Origin: a virus
Virus record (IMG/VR): IMGVR_UViG_3300045988_173701
Span: 1-38,000 of that record
DNA: 38,000 bases
Strand: one strand, 5' to 3'
Below the pieces are notes generated by a model, which saw only the letters and a list, made by a program, of their open reading frames with translations, ran no database searches and was not told the origin of the DNA. Positions within the stretch are counted from its first letter, which is position 1, and each line of letters opens with the position of its first letter. Positions 1,384 through 38,000 of the stretch are shown one piece after another. A program made the position numbers and the translations under genes.

Positions 1384-1397
1384 GGGATATAGAATGC
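1384..1397 (+). repeat. Boundary recombination site next to the recombinase gene (core GGGATATAGAATGC)
   Basis: The terminal inverted identity ends after GGGATATAGAAT. The right flank GCCATCACTCAC is unique to the recombinase side. Confidence 0.7.
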
Positions 1398-1407
1398 CAT
1401 CACTCAC

Positions 1408-2337
1408 TCAATCACTCGTAATTGTCAGTGACGCTGTAAGTGATGCGTGAGTGATCTTTGGTGCGTGATCAAACAGGTAGTCTTGCCAGATGGATTGTGC
1501 GTGCTTGATTATCGATTTACGCGGTACGATATAGTGGTTGTAGGCGGTCATAATGTTGGAATGGCCAAGGAACATGGCAACCGTTTCTATCGCTATACCA
1601 GCTTCGACGGCGATCGTTGCCCATGAGTGTCTCATGTTGGTCATGGTAACAACGGGGAGTTTGTTCCGTTTGCAAAACGCCTTTATTCGACGCGAGATAT
1701 TTTGCGGGTTATCGGGGTTTAGATATCCCTTTGGTCTACCGATAGATACCCAGATAGCATGTAACCTGTCTTTCGCAAACTTTGGTAGGTAAAGCACGCG
1801 GTTTGATTTTCGCGTTTTGGTTGGCAATATCACGACTTCGCCGCGTACGTATTGACGGCTACGGCTTATAGATACTGCGCCATTTCGCCAGTTAATATCA
1901 TCCCAACGTATGCCGTAGCTCTCTCCTGGACGCAAAGCAAGAGTAGTGCTGACTATTACGGTCGGTTCGTCTTTATGTCCGAAAAAGCCACGAAGTCGCT
2001 TAGCGGTTTCATTTGCTGTTATGGTCTTGGGGCGGTAGATAGGTTTACTAGGTAACTCGATCCCTTGCGTTGGGTTCCAAATTCGCAGGCGATATTTTCT
2101 GATTGCCCAGTTAAACAATTGGCGCAGGCATTTAAACGCCTTTTCTGCTGCACCCGCTTTGGTAAAGCCGTCCACCCATGCCTGGATTGTTTCAGGTTCG
2201 ATTGCTTCTATTTCGCAATTCCCGAACGTAGGGAGTATGTACAAGTTAATCGATGATCTATAGCCGTCGACGGTGGAAGCGCGGCGGCGCTGTTTTTTTT
2301 CTTCGAGATAAGCGACTGATATTTCGTTGATGTTCAT
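1408..2337 (-). CDS. Small tyrosine site-specific recombinase, candidate shufflon invertase (Rci-like role)
   Basis: 309 aa. C-terminal catalytic region has MRHSWAT (HxxR) and LGHSNIMTAYNHYI (catalytic Tyr). It lies directly beside the multi-site cassette array. Confidence 0.8.
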   Translation of the reverse strand: MNINEISVAYLEEKKQRRRASTVDGYRSSINLYILPTFGNCEIEAIEPETIQAWVDGFTKAGAAEKAFKCLRQLFNWAIRKYRLRIWNPTQGIELPSKPIYRPKTITANETAKRLRGFFGHKDEPTVIVSTTLALRPGESYGIRWDDINWRNGAVSISRSRQYVRGEVVILPTKTRKSNRVLYLPKFAKDRLHAIWVSIGRPKGYLNPDNPQNISRRIKAFCKRNKLPVVTMTNMRHSWATIAVEAGIAIETVAMFLGHSNIMTAYNHYIVPRKSIIKHAQSIWQDYLFDHAPKITHASLTASLTITSD

Positions 2338-4705: not shown

Positions 4706-5863
4706 CTAGCTACTCGTGACATTTTCGGTCTCATCTCGGTCACAATAAAACGCCTTATCAAGTATAGCCTTGAAATGCTTGACCTTTGGTTTTGTGTAAT
4801 AGGCATAGGTTGTAGATATATTTGAGTGTCCCAATAGCTTTGCAGCAGTTTCAATAGGAACTCCCAAATCTTCAAGCATGGTGCTATAGCTCGCTCTTAG
4901 GTTCTTCCATGGTATATATACGAATGGATGGTTGGTAAACCATCGTTTGTAGGCAGTTGCCGCCCTGTCGGGGTTTATTGGAGCGCCAAAGCCATCATCA
5001 AGCATCCAAATATCGTTTTCTCTTTCAGCTTCATCTAGGATGCTTTTAAGGCGTTTAGCGTAAGGATCTACCAAAACTGCGATTCGTTTGCTTTCGGGTG
5101 TTTTAGTATCGGGTGATTCTGCGCATTCGTCCGATATCACTAATTCTTTATTTATATATTGCACGGTTCTTCTGATCTTTAACGTTGCATATCCTTCAAA
5201 GAATTCGATATCTTCTCTTTTTAATCCAAATGCTTCTTCTCTTCTAAGACCACCAAACGCTGAAACAATAAAACCAGCGAGCCAATATTCATCTGTCATT
5301 TCTTCTAATAATTCATCTAATGTTTCCTTGTCGTATATTTCGCTATTCATGCGCCGTGAGGTGTTTTTGTTTGGCAGTTTATAACGGCGTGCCATCACAT
5401 TGCGATGTATGTATTCGCCATCTTCTGCGTAGTTAAACATCGCTCTCATCGTTTTTAATAAGCTTTTAGCGGATCCATAGGTAAGTTCTTCAAGATAGCT
5501 TTTAACCTCGGCTACTTGGATATTTTCCATTTCTTTTTTGCCGAATTGGGGACTGATGTGGCATCTATATACGCTTTCATAGCCTCTTACGGTTGCAGGT
5601 GCCTGATTCTTTTTTATATAGGGGTAGTAATAGCGGATCCAAAACTGATCAACGCTTATATTTCGTTTAATTTGATCTGACGGAGCGTTCAGAATCCTTA
5701 ATTCTGCAAGCCTTAGTTCAGCATCTTTTTTTGTGCCATGTATGGTTTCAGATGCTTGACGGCGCTTGCCCGTAATTGGATCGTCGGAGAGGGGATACCT
5801 AATGCGGTATACACCGTTTTTTGTTTTAGATATGGTTCCCCATGTTCGAGTTCTTTTAGCCAT
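4706..5863 (-). CDS. int: Phage integrase (tyrosine recombinase)
   Basis: 385 aa. C-terminal LLGHSNISTTYAYY motif. Adjacent to the tRNA-derived att core. Confidence 0.9.
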   Translation of the reverse strand: MAKRTRTWGTISKTKNGVYRIRYPLSDDPITGKRRQASETIHGTKKDAELRLAELRILNAPSDQIKRNISVDQFWIRYYYPYIKKNQAPATVRGYESVYRCHISPQFGKKEMENIQVAEVKSYLEELTYGSAKSLLKTMRAMFNYAEDGEYIHRNVMARRYKLPNKNTSRRMNSEIYDKETLDELLEEMTDEYWLAGFIVSAFGGLRREEAFGLKREDIEFFEGYATLKIRRTVQYINKELVISDECAESPDTKTPESKRIAVLVDPYAKRLKSILDEAERENDIWMLDDGFGAPINPDRAATAYKRWFTNHPFVYIPWKNLRASYSTMLEDLGVPIETAAKLLGHSNISTTYAYYTKPKVKHFKAILDKAFYCDRDETENVTSS

Positions 5864-7210: not shown

Positions 7211-7252
7211 CTCGCTTCTCGGTCGCCAAACTTCGAGCGAGGTTCTTTTTTA
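7211..7252 (+). repeat. 42-bp direct repeat, copy 2 (overlaps the GHKL gene stop codon)
   Basis: Identical to 5911-5952. Confidence 0.9.
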
Positions 7253-8545
7253 TTGACCAATATTAAAATGTCTTTTTAGTGCTTCATTAATCATCATTTC
7301 ATTTATCGGCGATACGTTTGTTATTGAAAAATAGGTCATGTATTTTACGAAACCGACTTCCTCTATCATTTTCCCTAACAGTTCGTCTGCATAAGAAGAA
7401 GTAACTATACTTGTGCTGTCGAAGTCGATTAGAATCTTTTTACCGCTCTGTTCGAATGCGTTTCTTATTACATTTCTTAGCCTGTTGGCAGCATATCTCG
7501 TTCCTGTCCCCTGAGATTCCTTTGCTATTTCGAACACAAGCGTATTTTCATTTAGTTCGTGGTCCTCTTCCCATAAGTCAGTTGGAATATATCCAAATAA
7601 AGCGTTTTCTACATTTATTTCTTTATCGACGGTGATTCTAAAATCAATAGTTGTTCCTCCGCTGATAGATGTTGCGATCTTTGAAATGACGGGTTCTGAA
7701 GATTCATTATCTTTAATATGGTCGAAAGTAACCCTTGTTTTGCCTGTAGAGATTTCCAATAATCCACAATTGTCTTTAATTAGCTGAGATAACATCCAAA
7801 GACCTCTGCCTGCTCCATTCCCAGAGGTAATATTTCTGGAAATTGCAAGTTGGATAGCTTCATCTTCATTTGCTGGAGAATATTTAGATCCTTCAAATGA
7901 TTTTAGGATTCCTTGGCCATTATCGTGAATAGTAAAAGCAACTGTTCTATTGTCTTGGTGGTATTGAGCCATTACGTATCCTACTGCATTTTCTACAGGC
8001 TCATTTGATGGTAGGGAATGGTTGATGACGTTATCCATTACTTCATTTAAGCAAAGCTCAATGCTAGGTAAAACACCTTTTACCAGCTTTGCATGCGTTC
8101 TTAAAGAATGAACTATTCCGCTTACAATTTTATCAATATCTTTCGAGGTGAATTTCCATACCCTGTCTAGGAATTCGCTTCTATAGATGTCTTCATTTCG
8201 GTATTCCTTTGGAGATATAAATGATGTATGTCCTAAATATGATCCTGCGAGATTCTGTGTCTTTAGAAAGACGCATCCTTTTTCTTTTGTGTAATAATCT
8301 AAGAGTGCGGAAACTGGTACACACATACTTGGATATGCTGAATCTGATTTTCCAATATTGCGAATCTTGAATATTTTTATACCGAGTTTAAGATTAGATT
8401 CTACGACTCTGGAAACGTGGTTAACCGATCCACGTTTTGCTATGTTGAGAGATATTATTTTATATCGGCTTGATTTGTCGTTTTCCGTCATAGTGTTCTT
8501 TTCTCTTGACTTGAAATAAAATCCTGTTATTATTCGTTGTGTCAC
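7250..8545 (-). CDS. GHKL-family ATPase (HATPase_c-like) with a possible STAS-like C-terminal region
   Basis: 431 aa. N-box LNEVMDNVINHS, G1 box HDNGQGI, G2 box SGNGAGRGLWM. Alternative start at Met-18 (8494). Confidence 0.6.
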   Translation of the reverse strand: MTQRIITGFYFKSREKNTMTENDKSSRYKIISLNIAKRGSVNHVSRVVESNLKLGIKIFKIRNIGKSDSAYPSMCVPVSALLDYYTKEKGCVFLKTQNLAGSYLGHTSFISPKEYRNEDIYRSEFLDRVWKFTSKDIDKIVSGIVHSLRTHAKLVKGVLPSIELCLNEVMDNVINHSLPSNEPVENAVGYVMAQYHQDNRTVAFTIHDNGQGILKSFEGSKYSPANEDEAIQLAISRNITSGNGAGRGLWMLSQLIKDNCGLLEISTGKTRVTFDHIKDNESSEPVISKIATSISGGTTIDFRITVDKEINVENALFGYIPTDLWEEDHELNENTLVFEIAKESQGTGTRYAANRLRNVIRNAFEQSGKKILIDFDSTSIVTSSYADELLGKMIEEVGFVKYMTYFSITNVSPINEMMINEALKRHFNIGQ

Positions 8546-10546: not shown

Positions 10547-10783
10547 ATGAATAAGTATCAATCAATTAGCGATGATGATGGCGTTTATATTGAAACGCTC
10601 GAAAGCATTGTTGATCGCATTCATGATTTTACGCACCTTCGCAAGAGCGAGATCACTCTGCTCAATGTTGGTTTTACTGTCAAAGAAGAAGATGGCTGCA
10701 AATACCTAGATTGTGACTTTGCATTCTTTCGCATTGGCATTGTGGAATTTCAAGTTGATTTTCATTCCTTGGAGATTGTTTAG
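10547..10783 (+). CDS. Hypothetical early protein
   Basis: ORF with upstream RBS-like GGGGAAATAGGTAGG. Confidence 0.35.
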   Translation: MNKYQSISDDDGVYIETLESIVDRIHDFTHLRKSEITLLNVGFTVKEEDGCKYLDCDFAFFRIGIVEFQVDFHSLEIV

Positions 10784-10785
10784 CG

Positions 10786-10986
10786 ATGGATAACAACAAC
10801 GGCTTTTCAGCAATAGAAATCGCGCTTTGTGTGCTCGTTTTCTTATCCAGCATTCTCCTTTGGCTGGTGTTCATGTTCAACCTTTTAGGTATGACGACTA
10901 TCGCCTTTTGGTTGGCGCTTGTTGAGGTTCTAGTTTGTATCGCATTTGGACTTTTGATTATTAGGGCGGTGATCAGATGGAAATGA
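10786..10986 (+). CDS. Small membrane protein
   Basis: 66 aa with two hydrophobic helices. Coupled to the upstream ORF. Confidence 0.3.
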   Translation: MDNNNGFSAIEIALCVLVFLSSILLWLVFMFNLLGMTTIAFWLALVEVLVCIAFGLLIIRAVIRWK

Positions 10987-11074
10987 TTCCAGCGTATTTG
11001 ATGATCATAGCAAGTCTGATTTCAGGATATGTATTCAGCTATTTGGAATGGCGAAAGCGTAATAAGTAGGGGAG

Positions 11075-11317
11075 GTGGTCGAATTGGCAAAGGTTACCAA
11101 GCCGCAGATTAAAACTCGGCTTTATACGATCAAAGAAGCTTCAGAGCTTTGGAACGTCCCATTAACTGTTTTATATGGCGAAATACGTCAAGGGCGACTG
11201 AGGGCAGTTATGAGACGTGGATGTGTTAAAGGCTACCTGGTTACCGAACAGATCATGGCTGATTGGATTGAAAACTCAATGGTCGATGTGTTCGATGTAA
11301 AAGGCGGCTTAGTTTAG
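11075..11317 (+). CDS. Excisionase-like or MerR-like HTH DNA-binding protein
   Basis: 80 aa. YTIKEASELWNVPLTVLYGEIRQGRL resembles excisionase-family HTH proteins. Confidence 0.45.
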   Translation: MVELAKVTKPQIKTRLYTIKEASELWNVPLTVLYGEIRQGRLRAVMRRGCVKGYLVTEQIMADWIENSMVDVFDVKGGLV

Positions 11318-11331
11318 AAGGGTTCCAGATA

Positions 11332-11673
11332 ATGATTACTGAAAAGCAGGTTTTAGATTCTCTCGAGCGCTATATCGATGCTGCTCAAGCTTATAGAAAA
11401 GAGCTTATGGATAAAGCAGAACAAGAGGGCAAGCATGGTAGTTCCGATCTTCTCTATCACGCACTTTGTCAATCTTTCAACGGTGTGATTTTGTTCGTTA
11501 CTGATCTGGTGAAAGGTATTCAGTTAGACGAGAAAAAATTCTCTGCTGCTACCTCTGTTGATCTGGCTATGTTTGCCGTTGACGCTGATATGAGCAAGAT
11601 TTTGGATACAAATATTAACGCCTTGCGATCTTTTATGCTTGAAATCGAGGTGGATAAGGTAAGCGCTCAATAG
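11332..11673 (+). CDS. Hypothetical protein
   Basis: 113-aa ORF with RBS. Confidence 0.4.
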   Translation: MITEKQVLDSLERYIDAAQAYRKELMDKAEQEGKHGSSDLLYHALCQSFNGVILFVTDLVKGIQLDEKKFSAATSVDLAMFAVDADMSKILDTNINALRSFMLEIEVDKVSAQ

Positions 11674-12017
11674 CGAGGGTTTTAGTAGGTAGGGCGTGGC
11701 ATGGAGATAGCGGATATTCCGCGATAAACCCCGATTAAACTTTTTTGCTTTTTTAGTCCCTTTTGGAGCAGTGACCAAAATCCAACTCCATGTCACATCC
11801 TGCCTACTAAGGGCAGGGCCTTACTGGATGGGTAGCGAGTGGTTTTTGTTTTCGCCTTTCGTTTCCAGCTCGCTACCTGTTCGGTTAAGGCTGAATACCT
11901 ACATATAAGCGCAAGCTGGACTTGATGGAATAGCGGCTCTGCATGGAATGGCTTGCGCTTGTATCTGGGTATTCCAGAAGCAGTTTGAAAAGCGAATACG
12001 TAGATAGGTGGTATGAA

Positions 12018-12239
12018 ATGAATTTATCTTTAATTGGTGTTTTGTTTCTGGTGTATGTGATAGGAGGCTTATTGCTTTTCCTTATAGCTCCAAGATTTGT
12101 AGACTTTATTGATCTTAAAACGAATATATATTCTGATGCACCAATCGTTGCTTATGTAGTAGTTATTTTTATATGGGTGTTTCTTGGGGGCGGCGTTATT
12201 TTCGGCATGTTCATTACAACGTTAGCTCTTAATTTTTAA
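12018..12239 (+). CDS. Small membrane protein
   Basis: ATG at 12018 after AGGTGGTATGAA. Two transmembrane helices. Confidence 0.35.
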   Translation: MNLSLIGVLFLVYVIGGLLLFLIAPRFVDFIDLKTNIYSDAPIVAYVVVIFIWVFLGGGVIFGMFITTLALNF

Positions 12240-12581
12240 TTATCCAAAAATAAGAGTAACTGAACTGCCTACAGCGGTTCCTAAAACGCCAAGAAACCAC
12301 GGGAAGGCTGAATATCCAAGCTTTTCAGCAATATATTTGATTCTTTCCCAGCGATAACAACGTCCTAGGCTTGTGAAATACCCCGCGGTTAAATTCTTGT
12401 CTGATGTATCTATTTCAAATATACCTAGATTTCCAAGCTCTATAAGGGTTTTATATTCTTCTAGCGGACTTTCGGTATCGATGAGATTTAATACATAGTC
12501 ATCGAATTCATTCTCCGATTCTTTTTGCATTTCGAGAAGTTTCTTACGAAGTTTATTTTGTTCTTTATTTAGCTTAATCAT
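12240..12581 (-). CDS. Hypothetical protein (convergent with the upstream ORF)
   Basis: 113-aa ORF. Confidence 0.4.
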   Translation of the reverse strand: MIKLNKEQNKLRKKLLEMQKESENEFDDYVLNLIDTESPLEEYKTLIELGNLGIFEIDTSDKNLTAGYFTSLGRCYRWERIKYIAEKLGYSAFPWFLGVLGTAVGSSVTLIFG

Positions 12582-12905: not shown

Positions 12906-13226
12906 ATGTCTATATGTCCATCGTGCGGCGGGTATTTGCCGCGAAACAGTGAAAGGTCAATTTGTCGCGAGTGCCACCTGAAGCGCGAGATTGAGTCGTT
13001 GCGTTGGGAAGTGGGAGAGCTTTATCGAATTCTTCCGATGCATATTCGTGCGAAATTGCGCAGCCAAGAGCAGGTTTATGTTCGTCAGGCCAATGTTAGC
13101 GTTTCTGGAAGATCCACCTCAAAAAGATTAAAGCGCTTATACCTTGAGCGTGATGCCCTTAAAAAGCAGGTTAGATCGTATCGTAAAGCTGCGATCGAGT
13201 GCGGTGTGCTTCGGAGTGGTAAGTAA
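12906..13226 (+). CDS. Zinc-finger protein (CxxC ... CxxC) in the integrase-2 cassette
   Basis: CPSCGG ... CRECH. Stop overlaps the integrase start (TAATG). Confidence 0.45.
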   Translation: MSICPSCGGYLPRNSERSICRECHLKREIESLRWEVGELYRILPMHIRAKLRSQEQVYVRQANVSVSGRSTSKRLKRLYLERDALKKQVRSYRKAAIECGVLRSGK

Positions 13227-14404
13227 TGGCATCGTCTCGTTTTAACTCAAATACGGGCATGATCGAGGTACGTGCTTATGCTGGCAAGGATCCGATTACG
13301 GGTAAGGTGCGGAATTTATTTCGCTCGCTTCCTGGAGACTCGGAGCCTGAAGCGGTAATAGGTGTTTGTGCAGAGTTACAAGAACAAGCAGATGCACTAA
13401 AGGGTCGATCTATTCCTTTTACTGTTAAGAGCGCAATTGAGTACTACTTTGATTGCATAGCGTCAGACCATTCAGCTACCACTATGGATGCGTATAGGTC
13501 AAATGCGCGTTGCTATGTGTATCCCTTTATTGGTGATAGGAGATTAGACGATCTTCAACCCTTTGAAATTACAAGGCTTTATCAGAGGCTCATTGATAAG
13601 GGCGGCAAGGATGAAAACCCTGTATCAAATTCTACGGTTGCCAAGTTGCATGCTTGGTTAAAACCCGCTTTTGATTATTTGGTTGGTTTAGGTATTGCAG
13701 GTTCTAATCCGTTTTCTTATGTAAAACGACCACGCGAAAACCAGGAAGAAGCGTTTGCGTTAAGCGAGATCGATCTAGCGGTTTTAATGGATTATCTCTA
13801 CGAAGCATCGAATCTTGATTCTGATGAATTCGACATGCTAAACGTTGCTTTGTTGTTGTGTTTGAATACAGGCATTAGACGTGGTGAGCTTGCAGGTTTT
13901 AGGGTGGGCGATTACAAGTCGCGCACTTCATCTATTTCGGTTAAGTCGAACTTGGTGCAAACCACAAAAGGATTAGTGCGCAAAGTTCCCAAGTCTAAGC
14001 ACTCAAGGCGCAATATATCGCTTCCTATTGATGTCTGTAATGTTCTTGATGGATATCTTTTCTGGCAGCGCGAAATGCTCGATGTTCACGGAATTCGCCA
14101 ACGTAGCGATACTCCTCTTTTTTGCGACAAGGAAGGCGCACCTATTCATCCTCGTATGTTTGCAAAGCATTTGCGCTACCTGGTAGGCAAATTAAAGCTG
14201 GATAGATCAATCCACTTGCATACCTTGCGTCACACCCATGCTACAGCGCTTTTAGATTTAGGTGTGAATATAAAAACTATTTCGGAGCGTTTGGGCCATT
14301 CAGATGTCGGGGTTACCTTGCGAATTTATTCCCATGTGTTGCCAGGTCGCGATGAGCAGGCAGCTAATACGTTTTCCAAAGCGGTGATGCGCCGTGACGT
14401 ATAA
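13226..14404 (+). CDS. Second phage-type integrase (tyrosine recombinase)
   Basis: 392 aa. C-terminal HTLRHTHATALLDLG ... RLGHSDVGVTLRIYSH. Confidence 0.85.
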   Translation: MASSRFNSNTGMIEVRAYAGKDPITGKVRNLFRSLPGDSEPEAVIGVCAELQEQADALKGRSIPFTVKSAIEYYFDCIASDHSATTMDAYRSNARCYVYPFIGDRRLDDLQPFEITRLYQRLIDKGGKDENPVSNSTVAKLHAWLKPAFDYLVGLGIAGSNPFSYVKRPRENQEEAFALSEIDLAVLMDYLYEASNLDSDEFDMLNVALLLCLNTGIRRGELAGFRVGDYKSRTSSISVKSNLVQTTKGLVRKVPKSKHSRRNISLPIDVCNVLDGYLFWQREMLDVHGIRQRSDTPLFCDKEGAPIHPRMFAKHLRYLVGKLKLDRSIHLHTLRHTHATALLDLGVNIKTISERLGHSDVGVTLRIYSHVLPGRDEQAANTFSKAVMRRDV

Positions 14405-30714: not shown

Positions 30715-32991
30715 ATGCCTAAAAATGAAGCGAAGGTAAAATTCACCGCCGAAACAGGAGAGTTCAATAAAAACCTCGAAGCCGCGAAGGCTAGGATGGC
30801 AAATCTTAGCTCAGAGATGAAGTTAGCTTCTGCTCAGTTCAAAAATACTGGTGATAGCGTTGAATTCTTGCAGACGAAGCAGCGTATTTTGTCTGATCAG
30901 CTGGAAACCGCTCAGGCCAAAACAGCGAATTTAAGCGCAAAGTTAGAAGTTGCTAATCGTGTATATGGCGAGGGGTCAATTGAAGCACAAAAGCTTTCTA
31001 CTCAGGTTAATAACGCCAGGGCGGCAGAAGCCCGTATTGCTAACCAGATTACCCAGACCGAGAAAGCTCTGAATAGTCAAAGTTCAGCAAGCTCAGAAAC
31101 TAAAGTTTCCTTCGATGAGCTTACCGAGGTAATTTCGCAGCAAAACAGTCAGGTTAAAAGACTTGAAGCTGAATATAAAAGTCTTGTAATAGAGTTCGGG
31201 CAGACTTCCAGTGAAGCTCAATCCGTTGGGGCTGAACTTAAGCAGGTTAGTTCCGAGCTGAGTAAATCCAGAGCAAGGCTTACCCAAGTAAGCGATGCTG
31301 CAAATGGTCTTGAGAGCGAACTTAAAGATGTGGATGCTGCAGCCGACGATGCAGGTGCTAGTGTTGGTGATATTGCTGCTGGTAATGTTATATCCGACTT
31401 TGCGACGAGCGGAATACAAGCGCTTGCTGGATTAGAGGAATCTACCAGGCAATACAGAAATGAGCAGGCAAAGCTTGCAACTGCTGCGCAAGCAACCGGT
31501 CAACCATTAGATCAGTTAAAGGGCAGCTACAATGAACTTTACGCAATAACAACAGATGAAACTATGTCATCTACTGCTGTTGCAAATATGTCGGCTATGG
31601 GAATGAGCGCCGAGAACCAGCAAAAGGCAATTAACGCAGCAACAGGAGCTTGGGCGCAATTTGGTGATTCAATTCCGCTCGATGGATTAATGGAGTCAAT
31701 TAATGAGTCGAGTAAGCTTGGGGCTACGTTAACAGGTCCCGTTGTCGATGCCATCAATTGGGCAAATGTTTCACAGGAACAGTGGAGCGCATCTCTGTCT
31801 GGCAATGCAGCAGCTCAGTCGGCGTTCAACTCTGCTGTTGCTCAGGGAGCGACAACAGAAGACGCGATGAATGCTGCGCTTGCTGCTTGTTCAACTGAGC
31901 AAGAACGTCAAAGTCTCTTAGTTAATGCTCTTGATACTGGTTATGGTGGGTTAGCAGCTTCGTATAGGGAGAATAATGCAGCGGTTATTGAAGCAAACAA
32001 TGCTCAAGCTGCGCTTACTGATGCTCAAGCTCAACTTGCAACCCAAATTACTCCCTTGCAGGCTCAAATAACCAATCTTGCGGCAAATGGTATTGGTTTT
32101 CTTGCGCAAAACTTCTCTTGGTTGGCTCCTATCATGGTTGGGGCGGCGGTTGCGTTCGGCGCTTTATGGCTTGCGATGAATGGTGCAACTATTATTCAGA
32201 CGGTAACGACCGCCTTTACTGCTCTTAATGCGGTTATGCGAGCAAACCCGATAATATTGGTAGTTAGTTTAATTGCTGGTTTGGTTGCAGCATTTATTAC
32301 CGCCTATAATACTTCTGAAACCTTCAGAAACATGGTAAATAGCGCTTTTCAATCAATCGCATCTGTTGTTTCTGGTGCGATTTCTACTGCTCAATCGGCT
32401 GTAGGTAGTGGAATTAGTGCAATTCAAGGGTTTTTTAACAATCTGTCTTCTATTCCTGGTGTTGTTAGTGGATTGTTTAATCAGATAAAAACTTTCATGA
32501 GCGATCCTGTTAACAATGCTAAAAGCGTGATTCAAGGTGCGATCAATTCTATTAAAGGGTTTTTCAATTTCAGTATCTCTTGGCCCCATATTCCGATGCC
32601 GCACTTTACTATATCTCCTGCTGGATGGCAGGTTGGCGATTTGCTCAAAGGATCGATACCCTCCATTGGAGTTAGTTTTTATGCAAAAGGCGGCATTCTT
32701 AATGGTCCAACAGTATTCGGATTTTCTGGCACCAATGCTCTTGTTGGAGGGGAAGCGGGCCCTGAAGCTGTTGCTCCAATTGATGTTTTACAGGGCTATA
32801 TCGATCAATCGATAGATGGTTATTTTGGCGGATCTCCTAATGCCCTATTAGCAAAAATTTTATGTGCTATTACTAAGCTTGATTCTGGTCTTGGAGCCAA
32901 GATTGAAAAGCACGCACCTCGATCTTTAGATATAGGCAACGAGAGGGGAGTGTTTAAGCTGATGAATAAGATTAGTAAGAAGTGGTCATAA
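30715..32991 (+). CDS. Tape measure protein
   Basis: 758 aa. Coiled-coil N-terminal half, central hydrophobic segments, Gly-rich. Confidence 0.85.
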   Translation: MPKNEAKVKFTAETGEFNKNLEAAKARMANLSSEMKLASAQFKNTGDSVEFLQTKQRILSDQLETAQAKTANLSAKLEVANRVYGEGSIEAQKLSTQVNNARAAEARIANQITQTEKALNSQSSASSETKVSFDELTEVISQQNSQVKRLEAEYKSLVIEFGQTSSEAQSVGAELKQVSSELSKSRARLTQVSDAANGLESELKDVDAAADDAGASVGDIAAGNVISDFATSGIQALAGLEESTRQYRNEQAKLATAAQATGQPLDQLKGSYNELYAITTDETMSSTAVANMSAMGMSAENQQKAINAATGAWAQFGDSIPLDGLMESINESSKLGATLTGPVVDAINWANVSQEQWSASLSGNAAAQSAFNSAVAQGATTEDAMNAALAACSTEQERQSLLVNALDTGYGGLAASYRENNAAVIEANNAQAALTDAQAQLATQITPLQAQITNLAANGIGFLAQNFSWLAPIMVGAAVAFGALWLAMNGATIIQTVTTAFTALNAVMRANPIILVVSLIAGLVAAFITAYNTSETFRNMVNSAFQSIASVVSGAISTAQSAVGSGISAIQGFFNNLSSIPGVVSGLFNQIKTFMSDPVNNAKSVIQGAINSIKGFFNFSISWPHIPMPHFTISPAGWQVGDLLKGSIPSIGVSFYAKGGILNGPTVFGFSGTNALVGGEAGPEAVAPIDVLQGYIDQSIDGYFGGSPNALLAKILCAITKLDSGLGAKIEKHAPRSLDIGNERGVFKLMNKISKKWS

Positions 32992-33863
32992 TGGGCTTAG
33001 GCTACGAGTTTACCTATACAAATTCCAAAGGAGTGTCCATCGAATTCGGTGGACACTCTCCTTTTTGGGTTGATGGAGATACCTTCCGCTCATATGAATA
33101 TTCGTACAACGAATCTAATGGAAAGATATCAAACTTTTACATGGGGTTGAAGACGTACGGTTTTGATGTATCTATTGAGTCTAATGGAGTATCTGAAGCC
33201 GTTGAGCTGACAGAACAGCTTAGAAAACTATCTAATTACGATATTAAAGCTGAAACTCCAGGAACTATAAAAATAGGAGAGTATCAGACTGAAGGCTACA
33301 TTATAGGCCTTGATTATTCTTCTGAAGGTGATGATGATTTCTATGGATTTGAGACTGGATTAAGCGTCCAGGTAGCAATCGAAAACCCTATTTGGTATAC
33401 AGAGGAGCTTGTTAGTTTTAAGCCTCAAGTTATTAGTCCTGATTCTTCAGAAGGTCTTAACTATCCTTTTAACTATCCGTATAACTACGGTGCTCGTCGC
33501 AACGTCTATCGTAGGTTTTATAACGATGAGGTATTAAGCTGTCCTTTTAGGATACTCATTTACGGTAGAGCAGTAGATCCTTATGTGCGAATTGGAGCAA
33601 ATCTATATCAAGTAAATGCCACTATTGCGCAAGGTGGTTATTTGGTAATTGATTCTCGTAAGAAAAAGATTTATGAAATTCAACGACTTGGAAATAGGGT
33701 AGAGCACATAAGAAACAGGCTTCGTGGAGCTAAGGGATCAGGTCAATACATATTCGAGGAAATACTTAGCGGATATAACGATGTTATGTGGGATAACACA
33801 TTCGGATTCGATTTATATCTTATTCACGAATCTCCTCTTCCTCCTTTCTTTAAGGATAAGTAA
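32982..33863 (+). CDS. Distal tail protein (Dit-like)
   Basis: 293 aa, directly after the tape measure. Confidence 0.55.
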   Translation: MVIMGLGYEFTYTNSKGVSIEFGGHSPFWVDGDTFRSYEYSYNESNGKISNFYMGLKTYGFDVSIESNGVSEAVELTEQLRKLSNYDIKAETPGTIKIGEYQTEGYIIGLDYSSEGDDDFYGFETGLSVQVAIENPIWYTEELVSFKPQVISPDSSEGLNYPFNYPYNYGARRNVYRRFYNDEVLSCPFRILIYGRAVDPYVRIGANLYQVNATIAQGGYLVIDSRKKKIYEIQRLGNRVEHIRNRLRGAKGSGQYIFEEILSGYNDVMWDNTFGFDLYLIHESPLPPFFKDK

Positions 33864-33866
33864 CTT

Positions 33867-35816
33867 ATGGTAAATGATATTTATTACGAAGCTCCTGATA
33901 GTCAAAATGACGAAATTATTACCAATGCTAATTTTGAGACTTCATTTGGTGAAGATGAAAACATTGTTACCTTAAAACGTTCCATCAGTGATCCAATTTT
34001 GCAAGGTGGTTTTATCTACTCTGAGACCGACGAAAACGGCGGCATTATCGACTCCATGGAAGAAGTTACCGGAGAAGATGGAGAAGTTACCTATAGCGGA
34101 AGAAGCTACACAGGTATTTTAGATAGTCATATTATAAGGCCTGAAATTGGAACACTTTCAGGAGATGCAAATGATGTTATTGCCAAGGTTATTGATCATC
34201 TAGATCTTGGTGATGTATTTAAAGCTTCTCCTGAAAAGAGCGGTATAGCTATTAGCTATGAGGTCGATGATTACCTAACTGGTTATAGCGGTTTGTGTGC
34301 CATACTGAAATCTTCTAATGCGAAACTAAGTATAAGTCATACAGAGAGTTTGGTTGAACTAAGTGCTTTGCCTGTTGCTTCTGCAGGAGGGGTTGAATTT
34401 GGTAGTGATAATTTTAAGTTAACTATCAAAAAGGTTTTTCGCACTACTAACCACATGATTTGTCTAGGACCAAGCGAGGTTATAGATTTATATGTTGACG
34501 AATCGGGCAATGTTTCCAAGACTCAACATTTCTTCGGTGTTGATCAAATAACATCAATCTTTGACCAGCGTGAAACTTCATCTGATGATTTAGAAGAGAA
34601 AGCGACTGAGGAGCTTTTAGGCTTACAGGATGCCGATTCTTGCGAAATAGACCTTTTAAGCGATGACGAATCACTCGATGTTGGCGATATCGTAAGTGGT
34701 GTCGATGACATTACAGGAATTGAAGTTGTTGCGGTTGTTAAGCAAAAGAGTTTCAGTATTTCTGAAAATGAGCAACACCATAGCTATGAAGCAGGAAATC
34801 CTTCAATGACGCAATCTAAGGGTGGATATTCTGGTAGTTCTAACAATAGTGACGGATCGGTTGCGCTTGGTTTTAAAGTTGGCGATACGTTGGTTCTTAT
34901 TGATGGTGTGCTTGATGCAAAGGTATCACCAGAGCAGCTTGAAAGCTTAAGCCAACTTGTTGCTACAGCAAGGCAAGAAGCGTCTAATGCTGAAGCTACA
35001 GCTAATCAGGTAGCGAATGATCTTGATACCAAGGCGGAATTTGAGCATTATCACGATGCGAGTGATATAACTACTGGAGTATTAGATCAGAGTCGCGGTG
35101 GCACTGGTTCTGGCAACACAAAAGGATCGCGATATAACCTCTTAGGCGATATTGGGAGCGAAACTTCAATTCCCGGAGATGAAAGCGCAGTTGTCTTTGC
35201 GTACAGCTCTCCTTCGATATCAAACGGGGCCATATTTAAGCGCTCGTTAAGTTCTGTTTGGGATTGGATCTATCAAAAGATAAAGAGTGTAGTAAAGCCT
35301 ACAGATATAGGTGCTGCTACGTCTGCTCATGTTCATGACGTGGCTACTGATTCATCAAATGGTTTTATGAGTGCCGATGACCGCGAAAAGCTTGATGGTA
35401 TTGCAGATGGTGCCAACAAGACGGTAGTGGATTCGTCGCTTAGCGATACGAGTGCAAATCCTGTACAAAACAAGGTTGTTAAGTCGGCTCTCGATGATAA
35501 AGCCGATTCTGATCACGAACATAACTATGCCGCGTCGCTTAGTCCCGGGGGATCGGCATCTAGTGCTGAAAAATTAAAAACTGCACGAACTATCACTTTT
35601 CAAGGAGCCGTTAGTGGCTCCTTTTCTTTTGATGGATCTGAAAACGTAACAGTAAACCTCGAAGGAGATAGTCAAGCTGCTGGTTTTCTCGCTGCTCATC
35701 CTATTGGAAGTATCTTTTTTACAACAAACTCAACCGATCCTGGTGACACATATGGTGGTGTTTGGAAGAAATTACCGAGCGACAACGGTGGTTATCTCTT
35801 TCTACGTGAAAGTTAG
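33867..35816 (+). CDS. Tail-associated or tail-fibre protein (Tal position) with C-terminal His-box fibre-repeat motifs
   Basis: 649 aa. SAHVHDVATD ... SDHEHNYAASL ... AEKLKTARTITFQGAVSGSFSFDGSENVTV. Confidence 0.6.
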   Translation: MVNDIYYEAPDSQNDEIITNANFETSFGEDENIVTLKRSISDPILQGGFIYSETDENGGIIDSMEEVTGEDGEVTYSGRSYTGILDSHIIRPEIGTLSGDANDVIAKVIDHLDLGDVFKASPEKSGIAISYEVDDYLTGYSGLCAILKSSNAKLSISHTESLVELSALPVASAGGVEFGSDNFKLTIKKVFRTTNHMICLGPSEVIDLYVDESGNVSKTQHFFGVDQITSIFDQRETSSDDLEEKATEELLGLQDADSCEIDLLSDDESLDVGDIVSGVDDITGIEVVAVVKQKSFSISENEQHHSYEAGNPSMTQSKGGYSGSSNNSDGSVALGFKVGDTLVLIDGVLDAKVSPEQLESLSQLVATARQEASNAEATANQVANDLDTKAEFEHYHDASDITTGVLDQSRGGTGSGNTKGSRYNLLGDIGSETSIPGDESAVVFAYSSPSISNGAIFKRSLSSVWDWIYQKIKSVVKPTDIGAATSAHVHDVATDSSNGFMSADDREKLDGIADGANKTVVDSSLSDTSANPVQNKVVKSALDDKADSDHEHNYAASLSPGGSASSAEKLKTARTITFQGAVSGSFSFDGSENVTVNLEGDSQAAGFLAAHPIGSIFFTTNSTDPGDTYGGVWKKLPSDNGGYLFLRES

Positions 35817-35825
35817 GGGGTAGGT

Positions 35826-36065
35826 ATGCCTATTACTGAAGGTTATTCACTATGCGAATGTGCAGGATGCGGAAAGTGTCAGTATTTAAAACCGACTGAT
35901 GATGAATATTCGAACTATGTAAACCGTGAGCGTATTACTGCAAACGGAAACTCGAGTAAAACTACTTTCTGCAAGGACTGTAACAACAAATATCAATCTT
36001 TTGTTAATCAACAAGATATCGATTTTCAGAACTTCTTAACTGGACTTAAAACTAAGGAGAAATAA
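35826..36065 (+). CDS. Small zinc-ribbon protein
   Basis: CECAGCGKC ... CKDCNNKY. Confidence 0.4.
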   Translation: MPITEGYSLCECAGCGKCQYLKPTDDEYSNYVNRERITANGNSSKTTFCKDCNNKYQSFVNQQDIDFQNFLTGLKTKEK

Positions 36066-36880
36066 TGGGAAACAGTGGAGCTTTTGAGCTTGTTACAGGA
36101 CATGGCGCTGAGCCTCATGTTGATGCCGACGATCATGCTTTGCTTTATGCGTCCTTTATAGGTTCAGGTGTATATCGTTTAACCGGGGTCAAGACAGCAG
36201 AAATCGAAGTTACCTCAGAAAATGAGGTAACTATAAGTCCTGGTATGTTTCTTATTCACGGTCGATTTGCACGTGTTAAAGATCCTATTTCGTTATCAAT
36301 TGAGACTGGCTCACAAGGACAAAACAGAAACGATCTTGTAGTTTGTGAATATTCTTATTCTGGAAATGAAACCGAAATCGACGATATGGAACTGGTAGTA
36401 GTTACGGGAACTCCTGCTAATCCTGGATCAGAAACAGATCCGTCAATTGAGGACGATTTAACCTTGTTCGATATTGAGTACGGCGGAAGTATTACCGATG
36501 AAACAATCATTCAAGTTCCACTTTGGAGGGTGCCAAAAGAAGGATTAACGACACAAGATCCAGTTGCATTATTTAAGGATTATGTTGATGCAACTACCGC
36601 CAGGGATTCTATATCCCATATTCAGGTACGCACCAGGAGAAACGTCAGCTTTAATGTAACCAGCACAGCATCGCAATCAGTCACTAGTATTAGTGGCTTT
36701 GAGGACATTGATCCTGATTCTATTGTTGCGTTTATTCCTACGCTTTCAGCCTGTTCCGTATCTTCCGTAAACGCTGCTGCTCTATGGAATACCGATAACG
36801 GACACAACGACTTGCAGCTTGTTACATCGCAAGCTCAGACCATTAAGGTTAATTTGACTGTGGTTTATACCATTGATTAA
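36065..36880 (+). CDS. Receptor-binding protein: 180-aa constant N-terminus (36065-36605) fused to variable cassette A (36606-36880)
   Basis: The ORF reads through site S1 (encoding DSISH) into segment 1. Its stop TAA lies in the extended flank of site S2. Start is coupled to the upstream stop (TAATG). Confidence 0.7.
   Translation: MGNSGAFELVTGHGAEPHVDADDHALLYASFIGSGVYRLTGVKTAEIEVTSENEVTISPGMFLIHGRFARVKDPISLSIETGSQGQNRNDLVVCEYSYSGNETEIDDMELVVVTGTPANPGSETDPSIEDDLTLFDIEYGGSITDETIIQVPLWRVPKEGLTTQDPVALFKDYVDATTARDSISHIQVRTRRNVSFNVTSTASQSVTSISGFEDIDPDSIVAFIPTLSACSVSSVNAAALWNTDNGHNDLQLVTSQAQTIKVNLTVVYTID
36606..36617 (-). repeat. Recombination site S1 (ATTCTATATCCC on the + strand) at the constant/variable junction
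   Basis: The terminal inverted identity starts here. The core is translated as S-I-S. Confidence 0.75.
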
Positions 36881-36886
36881 GTGAGA

Positions 36887-36900
36887 GCATTCTATATCCC
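36887..36900 (-). repeat. Recombination site S2 (GCATTCTATATCCC) with 23-nt extended flank at 36864-36886
   Basis: 36864-36900 is the reverse complement of 37964-38000. Confidence 0.75.
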
Positions 36901-37148
36901 ATCAAACATACGTTATCGATAAAACAATTATCGAGGCAAATGGCGCTTACAATCTAGCAAACAGAGAGTGGCCTGTTCCATTTGTAGATCTTTGGGGAGT
37001 TTGGGCACAAGTAACTAATGCGCGCGTTCAGGTCGAAATAAGAAACGTTACAAACACAGGGTTCGATGTAGGCATCAGAAATGTAACAAATGCTAATGCT
37101 TCTTTTGACAACGAAAAAATATCCATTCATGGATTGGGGCTTATCTAG
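36888..37148 (+). other. Silent cassette B (86 codons, no start codon) read in the site frame: HSISHQTYVIDKTIIEANGAYNLANREWPVPFVDLWGVWAQVTNARVQVEIRNVTNTGFDVGIRNVTNANASFDNEKISIHGLGLI
   Basis: Translated by hand from S2. Open until TAG at 37146-37148, immediately before S3. Not in the ORF track because it has no ATG, GTG or TTG start. Confidence 0.65.
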
Positions 37149-37409
37149 TTTTCTATATCCCATAAAATCGTAAACGTAAACGAAACAATTGCATCACATG
37201 GACAAGTGTTTGTTACTCTTGAAAACATCGAAGGATATACTTGCGTATCTTGCATGTTTGACGGCACGTCTACCGATAGTCTTGCTTTTAGTGTCAGTGC
37301 TCCAATGCACAGTCCTAATTCTGGATTAACATACACTCGAATAATTAATTTGATGAGTGGTCAAATCACCGTCGAAGGGACAATAACTGCTGTTTATATG
37401 CGAATTTAG
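37149..37409 (+). other. Silent cassette C, read through S3 as FSISHKIVNVNETIASHGQVF... and ending ...ITAVYMRI (covers ORF 37206-37409)
   Basis: Same relative frame to the site as cassettes A and B. Stop TAG at 37407-37409 lies in the S4 flank. Confidence 0.65.
37151..37161 (-). repeat. Recombination site S3 (degenerate: TTCTATATCCC preceded by TT rather than GCA)
   Basis: Core match at a cassette boundary. Confidence 0.5.
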
Positions 37410-37422
37410 CATTCTATATCCC
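37409..37422 (-). repeat. Recombination site S4 (GCATTCTATATCCC)
   Basis: Exact core. Confidence 0.75.
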
Positions 37423-37679
37423 AGTTTTATCAGACCGAAAAGCAAACGGTTTTGATGAATGGCACAAGCAATAATTTATTTACCTTTGATCTTGATATTC
37501 CGCCAGGATATACGGCATGCGCATTGCAGTATTTAAGCGTGGCAAGCGCAAATGCTGCATGCGTTATCAGCTCATACCGTTTAGCTGATAGCCAATTAAA
37601 AATTAACGTTAGAAACACAAGTGGCGCTCAAATAACCGCCGAAGTCGAAGCATCTATTTTATGCTTGAAGCTCAATTAA
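37410..37679 (+). other. Silent cassette D: HSISQFYQTEKQTVLMNGTSNNLF ... LCLKLN (covers ORF 37452-37679)
   Basis: In frame with the site. Lies tail-to-tail with cassette E with no site between them. Confidence 0.65.
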
Positions 37680-37976
37680 CTAGCTAAGCGGAATACGCAT
37701 GTTGCCGTTGTAGTGATATGTGCCGCTAGTGTTGTGCTTGCATACTACCTGACCACTATCGTTAACCCATAAAACACCTGTATGGTCTGCATCTGATGCA
37801 CAGAGAGACATACAGGCTTTATGTTGTGGAGGTTTATCGAGAGTGCCCAGTGTCCATGTATTTTCATTGCGCATGATCATGTCGTAAACGCTGATCTCGA
37901 CCGTATTATCGGGATAGTAGTAAAGCGTGCAGCCTTCTTCGATCTGTTCAGTTTTAATTGGTTGGGATATAGAATG
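37680..37976 (-). other. Silent cassette E on the minus strand, read from S5 as HSISQPIKTEQIEEGCTLYYYPDNTVEISVYDMIMRNENTW ... RIPLS (covers ORF 37680-37880)
   Basis: Translated by hand from the mirror copy (25-321). Same site frame. Confidence 0.65.
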
Positions 37977-37977
37977 C
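37964..37977 (+). repeat. Recombination site S5 (GGGATATAGAATGC), the only site in opposite orientation to S1-S4; extended flank runs to the window end
   Basis: Exact core, followed by TCTCACTTAATCAATGGTATAAA, which is the inverse of the S2 flank. Confidence 0.75.
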
Positions 37978-38000
37978 TCTCACTTAATCAATGGTATAAA

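Follow-up and report, generated by a model that had tools for sequence, protein, structure and literature searches.

A probable Rin-type shufflon in a temperate siphovirus, carried twice as mirror images on one contig

Shufflons of the Rin type have been described in the Bifidobacterium prophages Bb423phi1, Bl157phi1 and Bl30698phi1, where they comprise a constant Rc region, Rv cassettes, 11-bp rix sites (TTCCCTAACCC) and a rin gene (Mavrich et al., 2018, PMC6109161), and they also occur in Eggerthella lenta clade 1 prophages (PMC8778435). Here we describe a locus on a viral contig of 38,000 bp, analyzed in its entirety (hereafter the window) and belonging to a genome that is circular in the assembly. 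The locus is very probably a Rin-type shufflon of a temperate siphovirus, most likely of an uncultured Eggerthellaceae host, and the contig carries it twice as mirror images.

Like the published Rin shufflons, the locus lies between tail and lysis genes and has an Rc of ~170-185 aa, several Rv cassettes of 80-100 aa with <30% mutual identity, an in-frame, asymmetric 11-bp site before each cassette, and an armless tyrosine invertase at its distal end. The core of the sites, TTCTATATCCC, matches the published rix TTCCCTAACCC at 8/11 positions and is a new variant of a TTC-N5-CCC rix pattern that also fits TTCCGTAACCC of Bifidobacterium phage PMBT6 and TTCCATAGCCC of sister phages. Apart from this core, the locus differs from the published systems in its low G+C genome (42%) and probable uncultured Eggerthellaceae host lineage, in a recombinase that shares only ~36% identity with its closest Bifidobacterium phage counterpart in the collection (that of PMBT6), in the possible duplication of one cassette (A), and in cassettes that are 98-100% identical at the nucleotide level to those of phages with unrelated Rc genes.

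Two other groups of inversion systems invite comparison. The R64/IncI1 shufflon (Rci, sfx, pilV) likewise combines a tyrosine recombinase, encoded at the distal end, with multiple short asymmetric sites, one segment holding two convergent cassettes, and inversion that swaps the C-terminus of an adhesin; it differs in the sequence and conserved length of its sites, shows no specific similarity between Rci and the recombinase studied here, and acts on a target other than a phage receptor-binding protein. Min (p15B), Cin (P1) and Gin (Mu) are phage-borne, switch tail-fiber C-termini by site-specific inversion and, in the case of Min, use multiple sites, but they are serine invertases with Fis, an enhancer and different sites, whereas the enzyme here is a tyrosine recombinase.

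Tail gene, cassettes and recombinase

The features of the locus, in window coordinates, are as follows.

36065..36606, + strand: Rc, constant N-terminal part of the putative receptor-binding protein gene (from the ORF list and tail gene neighborhood)
36065-36880, + strand: current open reading frame, Rc plus cassette A, 271 aa (ORF list)
36607..36617, + strand: S1, rix-like site inside the gene, GGGA-TTCTATATCCC-A, encoding part of the DSIS motif
36618..36889, + strand: cassette A with a 9-nt spacer (GTGAGAGCA), TAA stop codon at 36878-36880
36890..36900, + strand: S2, AGCA-TTCTATATCCC-A
36901..37150, + strand: cassette B, TAG stop codon at 37146-37148, 266-aa in-frame fusion to Rc via the core
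37151..37161, + strand: S3, AGTT-TTCTATATCCC-A, left flank of the TAGTT type, core intact
37162..37411, + strand: cassette C, TAG stop codon at 37407-37409, 266-aa fusion
37412..37422, + strand: S4, AGCA-TTCTATATCCC-A
37423..37679, + strand: cassette D, TAA stop codon at 37677-37679, 269-aa fusion
37680..37963, - strand: cassette E (E'), 278-aa fusion, convergent with D at zero spacing
37964..37974, - strand: S5, inverted site, inner flank the start of E, outer flank the end of A
37975..38000, - strand: 26 nt repeating, as reverse complement, the sequence immediately before S2 (end of A, stop codon and spacer), ended by the contig end
1..1395, no strand assigned: shufflon assembled a second time at the other contig end, exact reverse-complement duplicate of 36606-38000
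1384..1394, - strand: S0, site nearest the recombinase gene, GGCA-TTCTATATCCC-A, end of rin on its outer side and start of A on its inner side
1408-2337, - strand: rin-like tyrosine invertase of 309 aa, armless, consisting of a core-binding and a catalytic domain

The gene order runs from tape measure, Dit and Tal through a 79-aa protein to Rc, the shufflon, rin, holin, lysin and integrase. Each of cassettes A-E is preceded by a site, and all five are in frame with Rc through the core (fusions of 266-278 aa), with variable parts of 81-93 aa that share 16-28% identity. The earlier note's view that several sites form a shufflon which changes the C-terminal end of a tail protein is supported, and so is its reading of D and E' as a convergent two-cassette segment without spacing: the D stop codon (TAA, 37677-37679) immediately abuts that of E' (CTA, 37680-37682), the two meeting at 37679/37680.

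Database comparisons of the Rc-A protein fit this organization, as many database proteins are 96-99% identical over ~68-70% of the query, after which their C-termini diverge. The protein had no match in Pfam or in a profile search against PDB sequences, its AlphaFold2 model was poor (pLDDT 62, pTM 0.48), and Foldseek of that poor model against the PDB returned nothing at E<=0.001; an exact look-up in the contig index likewise found none, while the protein's cluster is present in JGI. Its gene position and the published Rin systems suggest that the Rc-cassette product is a putative receptor-binding protein.

The recombinase contains a SAM-like domain from residue 9 and a catalytic domain at 134-271, and nothing else. 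Its best structural relatives are XerC, XerD and XerA, and its catalytic R, K, R, H and Y residues show no variation among 19 homologues. By comparison, two integrases in the window have ~65 extra N-terminal residues, with the SAM-like domain beginning at residues 66-76. Within the phage collection, the PMBT6 'integrase' matches best (36% identity, 88% coverage, E 9e-47); its gene adjoins a TTCCGTAACCC site, and three further sites, oriented the opposite way, include one inside the adjacent gene. An alignment-based scan recovered homologues at 42-54% identity in Collinsella, Eggerthella, Adlercreutzia and Olsenella genomes, many on contigs that break just after the gene; a single-protein scan gave nothing.

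The earlier note had reasoned from the assumption that this enzyme behaves like Rci. A shufflon of the Rci/sfx family (R64 type) or a serine-invertase system (Gin/Cin/Min type) would be its functional analogue, exchanging an adhesin C-terminus by multiple inversions, and the short asymmetric site recalls sfx (Gyohda 2002, 2006, as cited in PMC11850598). We nevertheless consider such an assignment highly improbable. The enzyme is a tyrosine rather than a serine recombinase, and no resolvase domain was detected in the ORFs scanned; no NCBIfam model for Rci was matched, the hits being weak Xer and integron-integrase models, all below cut-offs; and a tblastn search of 72,556 plasmids returned 177 records, with no Escherichia among the most frequent organisms listed. 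In sequence the site bears no relation to sfx, and what is switched is a phage tail protein rather than PilV. With PMBT6 as its best phage match, the recombinase is probably Rin-like instead.

Crossover sites and inversion

The 11-nt core occurs at 36607, 36890, 37151 and 37412 on the + strand and at 37964 on the - strand, with mirror-copy matches at 27 (+) and at 579, 840, 1101 and 1384 (-), which gives 10 matches in the window versus 0.6 expected by chance. Across 58 unique sites, the consensus is an asymmetric 15-nt sequence, RGNW-TTCTATATCCC, with a right side that is variable beyond +1, and the same left flanks are paired with up to six different right flanks. A-end and rin-end have a GTGAG-rich left flank in common. 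S3, which the earlier note had described as weakened in its core and possibly less active, is not a decayed site. The 11-bp core of S3 is intact, and its difference from S2 and S4 is limited to the two bases left of the core (TT for CA). TAGTT left flanks are common in relatives and swap partners there; in two of them (L103 and L109) the B-end TAGTT flank found at S3 joins D rather than C.

The five positions and orientations given previously, with S1-S4 pointing one way and S5 alone the other, are correct as listed, but they omit S0 (1384-1394), whose orientation on the circular map is opposite to that of S1, and so describe a truncated copy of the locus. Among complete relatives, site orientations include three direct plus three inverted and one direct plus five inverted. 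A model in which all primary inversions are anchored on S5 is not supported as it stands, since it leaves out both the recombinase-proximal site and the mirrored contig ends. The prediction that B, C and D can reach Rc only through two successive inversions fared better: enumeration under an inversion-only rule, in five-site and six-site models alike, places E one inversion from Rc and B, C and D two. This two-step logic would stand on condition that Rin shares with Rci the restriction to inverted sites, a rule shown for Rci and borrowed for Rin by analogy.

In the mechanism we propose, promoterless C-terminal cassettes, each with a site before it and a stop codon after it, lie behind Rc, and an armless Xer-like tyrosine recombinase, encoded at the far end with its own site 13 nt after its stop codon, would act on them. 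Recombination between a pair of sites in opposite orientation would invert the DNA between them and swap the sequences to the right of each core, and inversion would thereby bring a different cassette in frame behind Rc, as the anatomy of the locus and its relatives suggest. A phage that is otherwise 100% identical (L100, from another sample, SRR31145755) has an Rc/E junction, versus Rc/A in the window, so that one switch between two samples of the same phage is visible from assemblies alone. For the present sample, we infer inversion from assembly junctions. The arrays of two relatives (L109 and L110) are distinguished by exactly one cassette, which lies between two sites of the same orientation; this is compatible with deletion or insertion. 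We rejected this pair as proof of deletion between direct sites, given that the L110 contig starts 95 nt upstream and the missing cassette may lie elsewhere.

Contig ends and the arrangement of cassette A

Positions 1-1395 of the window are the exact reverse complement of 36606-38000, with no mismatch until 1396, and the mirror image ends at the sixth junction (1384-1394), 13 nt from the recombinase stop codon. The assembler came into the shufflon from both unique flanks, so that the 38,000-bp contig contains it at either end, as an inverted duplication of 1,395 bp. On its outer side, S5 is bordered by the end of A and not by the recombinase flank, and the true distal end of the shufflon is absent from the window. 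The contig contains six junctions, namely Rc/A, rin/A, A-end/B, A-end/E, B-end/C and C-end/D; rin/A also occurs in one relative (L001). An independent, 100% identical assembly (scaffold_627) holds only the unique part and stops exactly 55 nt into core plus A at both ends. Unitigs in SRR31145755 break at cores, and one related contig (L108) has the unique rin-end flank at both of its ends.

These observations also bear on a 37-bp inverted identity between S2 and S5, which had been reported previously and tentatively interpreted as a preferred pairing or the scar of a recent exchange. The identity is present (36864-36900 and 37964-38000), extending to 38 exact nt (36864-36901 and 37963-38000) and to 43 nt at 95%. 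It reaches the last base of the window, however, and 37 bp is therefore a minimum length rather than something intrinsic to the sites. What is repeated is the 3' flank of cassette A, which lies left of two cores, before B at S2 and before E at S5, and four relatives (L006, L104, L106 and L107) have A-end/E as one of their ordinary internal junctions. A special relationship between S2 and S5 is thus not borne out, while the scar view is reasonable, in that recombination of the site following A with the one preceding E would yield A-end/E. The junction may reflect a duplication of A in inverted orientation or, alternatively, the coexistence of several inversion states.

The same choice would account for the joining of A to both Rc (at S1) and rin (at S0) in this sample, as a second inverted A or as the majority path through mixed states. 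If A were present at both shufflon ends in inverted orientation, the locus would have six sites (S1-S4 direct, S5 and S0 inverted) in the order Rc-S1-A-S2-B-S3-C-S4-D.E'-S5'-A'-S0'-rin', the S2/S5 identity would span all of A (~295 bp), and the second copy could stem from an unequal intermolecular exchange in which the site that follows A in one genome copy recombined with the site that precedes E in another, differently inverted one. All six junctions fit one molecule only with A twice, as no single-copy state has both Rc/A and rin/A; the ends of scaffold_627, one k-mer (55 nt) into core plus A on both sides, are as expected if A is an inverted-repeat node with no branch before it; and joining 37964-38000 to 1101-1137 would close a circle of ~36.9 kb. 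Yet a duplicated cassette is found in none of ~25 related shufflons, the predicted A-end/A-start junction was not found in IMG/VR, and the passage from A to B at both contig ends would still call for a middle block present both ways round or for an arbitrary assembler choice. We regard this arrangement as plausible but somewhat doubtful. Closer to an even chance, in our judgment, is a mixed population with five sites, a single-copy A and S5 as the recombinase-proximal site, which comes nearest to the view of the earlier note. States arising mainly from S1xS5 and S2xS5 inversions would leave a contig of majority neighbors, with A-end/E as the S2xS5 product, and junction enumeration over four equal states makes A the majority neighbor of Rc and of rin (2:1:1) and A-end the majority left partner of B and of E. 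Shufflon populations are usually mixed, with three variants in Bb423phi1 virion DNA (PMC6109161); the SRR31145755 unitigs that break at cores agree with this, L108 shows that such assemblies can traverse mixed states, and PMBT6 has the corresponding pattern of n direct sites plus one inverted, recombinase-proximal site. Such a population, on the other hand, requires rin/E, rin/B, Rc/E or Rc/B junctions, and none occurs in the 38-kb contig or in scaffold_627, both of which are unbranched into A.

A perfect 1,395-bp inverted terminal repeat on a contig might also be taken at face value, as the genuine terminal inverted repeats of a linear phage genome, but this we consider least probable of all and scarcely credible. 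The repeat is exactly the cassette array and begins at a recombination core inside a tail gene, it interrupts a tail-rin-lysis order that is continuous in relatives (L005, L009 and L101-L104), the terminase and portal are typical of cos/pac packaging, and the independent assembly scaffold_627 has the unique part only. As for the choice between two copies of A and a mixed population, the k-mer signature of the contig ends was rejected as a decider, given that assemblies of the L108 type walk through branch points. Look-ups of the E' and D ORFs returned relatives only and not the small shufflon contigs of the source samples, and the core plus A-start sequence was absent from JGI metagenome contigs. 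More generally, shufflons break short-read assemblies or yield contigs whose two ends are long inverted duplicates of each other. Tools that assess completeness could take these for genuine terminal repeats, and features at such contig ends are not to be taken as biology.

Cassettes shared among phages

Several cassettes of this locus recur in other phages. When the shufflon was searched at the DNA level, nothing in the phage collection matched it. A-like cassettes are found on other Rc types (P0157-P0161) and in seven further relatives (L006, L008, L101, L103, L104, L106 and L107), cassette B is 99% identical at the nucleotide level in L103 and L109, cassette E is 98-100% identical in at least eight other phages, and many relatives contain the D.E' unit, in which 552 nt separate the cores. 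The 98-100% nucleotide identity of B and E extends to phages without DNA similarity in Rc and tail genes, in which rin is ~80-86% identical. Conversely, phages with a 99% identical Rc have a different rin, rix core and cassettes, with the breakpoint at the site inside Rc. We tentatively suggest, as a possibility that we hold to be rather less than probable, that rix-bounded cassettes form a shared, horizontally exchanged pool, somewhat integron-like, and that Rin/rix also acts between genomes. If true, intermolecular exchange between same-orientation sites would explain both a second inverted A and the one-cassette difference between L109 and L110.

Taken together, these data would add a low-G+C phage of a probable uncultured Eggerthellaceae host to the known carriers of Rin shufflons, so far prophages of Bifidobacterium and Eggerthella lenta, and they contribute a variant of the rix core together with a 15-nt consensus from 58 sites. 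A cassette pool shared among phages would be the more interesting result if intermolecular rix exchange were confirmed.

Layout and relatives of the locus

The locus is a Rin shufflon, a known kind of system to which it adds a further member. In the Rin shufflon of Bifidobacterium prophages, the constant part (Rc) measures 168 aa and the Rv cassettes 95-100 aa, with identities of 6-30%; an 11-bp asymmetric rix site, TTCCCTAACCC, lies upstream of each Rv, the gene of an armless tyrosine invertase, rin, stands at the far end, and reads revealed inversion variants (PMC6109161); the system was later found in Eggerthella lenta prophages (PMC8778435). The present locus shares this layout, with the following features:

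36065-36606: Rc, the constant part
36618-36889, 36901-37150, 37162-37411 and 37423-37679: cassettes A, B, C and D
37680-37963, minus strand: cassette E (E' in array orientation)
36607, 36890, 37151 and 37412, plus strand: 11-nt core TTCTATATCCC, sites S1-S4
37964, minus strand: the same core, site S5
27, plus strand, and 579, 840, 1101 and 1384, minus strand: mirror copies of the core, S5 to S1 reflected (1384-1394 is S0, next to the recombinase)
1408-2337, minus strand: rin-like tyrosine recombinase, 309 aa, with a SAM-like core-binding domain from residue 9 and a catalytic domain at 134-271
4706-5863, minus strand: canonical tyrosine integrase adjoining the lysis module, with about 65 extra N-terminal residues
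5950-7074, minus strand: Abi_2 abortive-infection gene, beside the integrase
7250-8545, minus strand: protein with HATPase_c and DUF4325 domains, beside the integrase
13226-14404, plus strand: canonical tyrosine integrase of the early region, with the replication genes directly downstream and an N-terminal extension of about 65 residues
30715-32991: tape measure
32982-33863: Dit-like protein
33867-35816: Tal-like minor tail protein

The gene at 36065 follows terminase, portal, protease, capsid, tape measure, Dit-like, Tal-like and 79-aa protein genes, and beyond the shufflon on its other side lie the recombinase, holin, amidase, integrase and Abi genes; the same order is found in one piece on longer contigs of six related loci (L005, L009, L101-L104). 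The Abi_2 gene and the HATPase_c/DUF4325 protein are likely prophage-encoded defence cargo. Fused to Rc through the core, each cassette gives an open frame (A 271, B 266, C 266, D 269 and E 278 aa); all five fusions read ...ARDSIS- across the core, and their variable parts comprise 81-93 aa with mutual identities of 16-28%. As the earlier note had it, D and E' converge with zero spacing, the TAA of D (37677-37679) abutting the stop of E' (CTA on the plus strand, 37680-37682).

The catalytic arginines, lysine, histidine and tyrosine of the 309-aa recombinase are invariant across 19 homologues, and its nearest solved relatives are XerC-like, XerD and XerA proteins, while the two integrases in the window are only 22-29% identical to it. 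Its best match in the phage collection is the recombinase of Bifidobacterium phage PMBT6 (36% identity, 88% coverage), which adjoins one TTC-N5-CCC site, with three others in the opposite orientation, one of them within a neighbouring gene. Across Collinsella, Eggerthella, Adlercreutzia and Olsenella genomes, homologues with 42-54% identity are widespread; many of the contigs bearing them stop right after the recombinase gene, a typical assembly break at shufflons. The nearest prophages lie in genomes in which glutamate racemase shares 87% identity with that of an Eggerthellaceae MAG. Membership of the R64/Rci family was rejected, since no Rci model matched the recombinase and a plasmid search with it listed no Escherichia among the most frequent organisms; the likeness to the R64 shufflon is one of function, not of family.

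The core matches the window ten times, against 0.6 matches expected by chance, and stands at all five S1-S5 positions in the orientations first assigned to them. It is identical to the published rix site at 8 of 11 positions; TTCTATATCCC, TTCCCTAACCC, TTCCATAGCCC (from phages with a 99%-identical Rc and a different recombinase of 296-299 aa) and TTCCGTAACCC (the PMBT6 core) all fit TTC-N5-CCC. Our junction survey covered the window plus 25 related loci, and its 58 unique sites yield the consensus R-G-N-W, TTCTATATCCC, A>C. Rc sites read GGGA-TTCTATA-TCCC, in which inverted arms of 4 bp flank an asymmetric centre of 7 bp.

The earlier proposal that S3 has a weakened core does not hold: the core is intact, and S3 differs from S2 and S4 only in two bases to its left (AGTT vs AGCA). 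Left flanks of the TAGTT type occur at 10 of the 58 sites, several with different right partners in different genomes, and TGGGGCTTATCTAGTT, the B-end flank belonging to S3, adjoins C in the window and D in two related loci (L103 and L109). TT at -2/-1 is no mark of decay; the activity of S3 in the present population is a separate matter.

Variant cores also occur among the relatives, TTCTATATGCC at two of three sites in L102 (4907, 5527) and TTCTATATACC at one site each in L008 (about 3548) and L108 (4084); they may help in placing the crossover region, or may be dead sites. The left flank of S2, at the A end (TGATTAAGTGAGAGCA, 36860-36889), resembles that of the recombinase-proximal site (TGATTGAGTGAGTGATGGCA, 1395-1424, minus strand), aligning to it with a score of 9, where the other left flanks score -3.5 to -6.5. 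In most relatives the recombinase-proximal site is preceded by GTGAG-rich repeats. The likeness of the two flanks could stem from common origin or mark an accessory element.

Mirror-image contig ends and the S2/S5 junction

Reverse-complemented, positions 36606-38000 reproduce positions 1-1395 of the window exactly, and the first difference appears at 1396. A 100%-identical database protein is encoded on a JGI contig whose length is 38,000 bp exactly; the window is therefore an entire contig, whose ends form an inverted duplication of 1,395 bp. The mirror stops at the S1 core; outside S0 the sequence diverges, 13 nt from the stop codon of the 309-aa ORF. Given the unbroken tail-to-lysis gene order of the relatives, the contig represents a circular map closed through the shufflon, and the true map is circular, of about 36.6-36.9 kb. 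With completeness tools for which inverted terminal repeats count, such a contig could pass for a complete linear genome. On one metagenomic contig, L108, the unique rin-end flank occurs at both shufflon ends, inverted (3170, 4735), a clear example of a hairpin-like chimera from two inversion states.

The 37-bp inverted identity that had been noted between S2 and S5 (36864-36900 and 37964-38000) is real and includes the cassette A stop, the TAA of the current ORF (36878-36880), but its length is set by the contig, since the identity ends at base 38000 where the sequence itself ends; it is exact over 38 nt (36864-36901 and 37963-38000) and 95% over 43 nt. It is the A-end present twice. Nor is it special to that pair, as the A-end joined to E is an ordinary internal junction in four relatives (L006, L104, L106, L107). 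The end of the contig and the doubled assembly thus account for most of the feature.

The junctions in the contig are Rc to A, A-end to B, B-end to C, C-end to D, A-end to E and rin to A, and the first and last together are impossible in any single-copy arrangement. Cassette A may therefore be present twice, inverted, in the order Rc-S1-A-S2-B-S3-C-S4-D.E'-S5'-A'-S0'-rin', which would account for all six junctions by one molecule; the classic graph of unique region, inverted repeat and middle block yields such contigs, and an independent metaSPAdes-style assembly of the same phage, scaffold_627, fits in ending exactly 55 nt into core plus A at both ends. However, a duplicated cassette is seen in none of about 25 related shufflons, and the predicted junction of A-end to A-start was searched for and not found, so that we regard the duplication as plausible though somewhat doubtful. 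Alternatively, A is single-copy and the sample mixes states arising from exchanges among the Rc, A-end and rin sites, a reading that we hold to be about evenly balanced between true and false. Four states of equal frequency would make A the majority neighbour of Rc and rin, and the A-end the majority partner of B and E, so that a majority-following assembler would produce the observed path, and the rin-end flank at both ends of the L108 contig proves that such assemblies can traverse mixed states; yet the junctions that the mixture requires (rin to E, rin to B, Rc to E or Rc to B) are absent from both assemblies of the present sample. Under either reading the A-end came to be joined to E when the site that follows A recombined with the one that precedes E, and the description of this junction as the scar of an exchange is acceptable.

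Inversion logic and evidence of switching

Enumeration of all arrangements reachable by inversion between oppositely oriented sites yielded 48 states with five sites and 240 with six; under both models a single inversion separates E from Rc, and two separate B, C and D from it. The nested-inversion scheme of the earlier note is thus combinatorially correct if only inverted sites recombine, but S5 is its sole anchor only in the five-site model (four primary inversions, all via S5); the six-site model has eight, via S5 or S0. Restriction to inverted sites is known for Rci (Gyohda 2006, as cited in PMC11850598), whereas Mavrich et al. explicitly leave it open for Rin (PMC6109161). Among complete relatives, L005 has three direct and three inverted sites, and L009 and L112 each have one direct and five inverted; having only one inverted anchor is thus a state that the system takes and not a design feature.

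In a Logan assembly of a different sample (SRR31145755), stretches of 14.1 kb and 3.3 kb match the window at 100% identity, and the contig leads out of Rc, through the core, to E (GGGA, TTCTATATCCC, AACCAATTAAAACTGAAC); the recombinase-side contig breaks two bases past the core. Across the 58-site survey one left flank pairs with up to six right flanks: the Rc of the present phage is joined to A, E and two further cassettes, the A-end to B, E, D and one further cassette, and the rin-end flank to A, D and E.

Possible exchange of cassettes between genomes

In three relatives (L010, L011 and L012, around 10780-12300) Rc is 99% and Tal 94-96% identical to the window, and both the recombinase (296-299 aa) and the core (TTCCATAGCCC) are different; as the similarity breaks off at the site within Rc, the module has been exchanged as a whole. 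Two other loci, L101 and L103, have tail genes 99% identical up to the Rc site, beyond which they carry different cassette sets and recombinases only 84% identical. L109 (868-1139) and L110 (648-658) differ by exactly one cassette, B, and one site, between same-orientation sites with flanks 100% and 99.2% identical; the difference has the look of a deletion or insertion at direct rix sites, but L110 begins too near the site to exclude cassette relocation. Cassettes B and E are 98-100% identical in nucleotide sequence in other phages (L103, L104, L106, L109 and others), which have no detectable DNA similarity to the window in Rc or the Tal/tail genes and a rin only 80-86% identical. Collectively, the shared cassettes and the two pairs of loci suggest, short of proof, exchange at rix sites between genomes, and the sequence comparisons suggest that the phages draw on a common mobile pool of cassettes delimited by rix sites.
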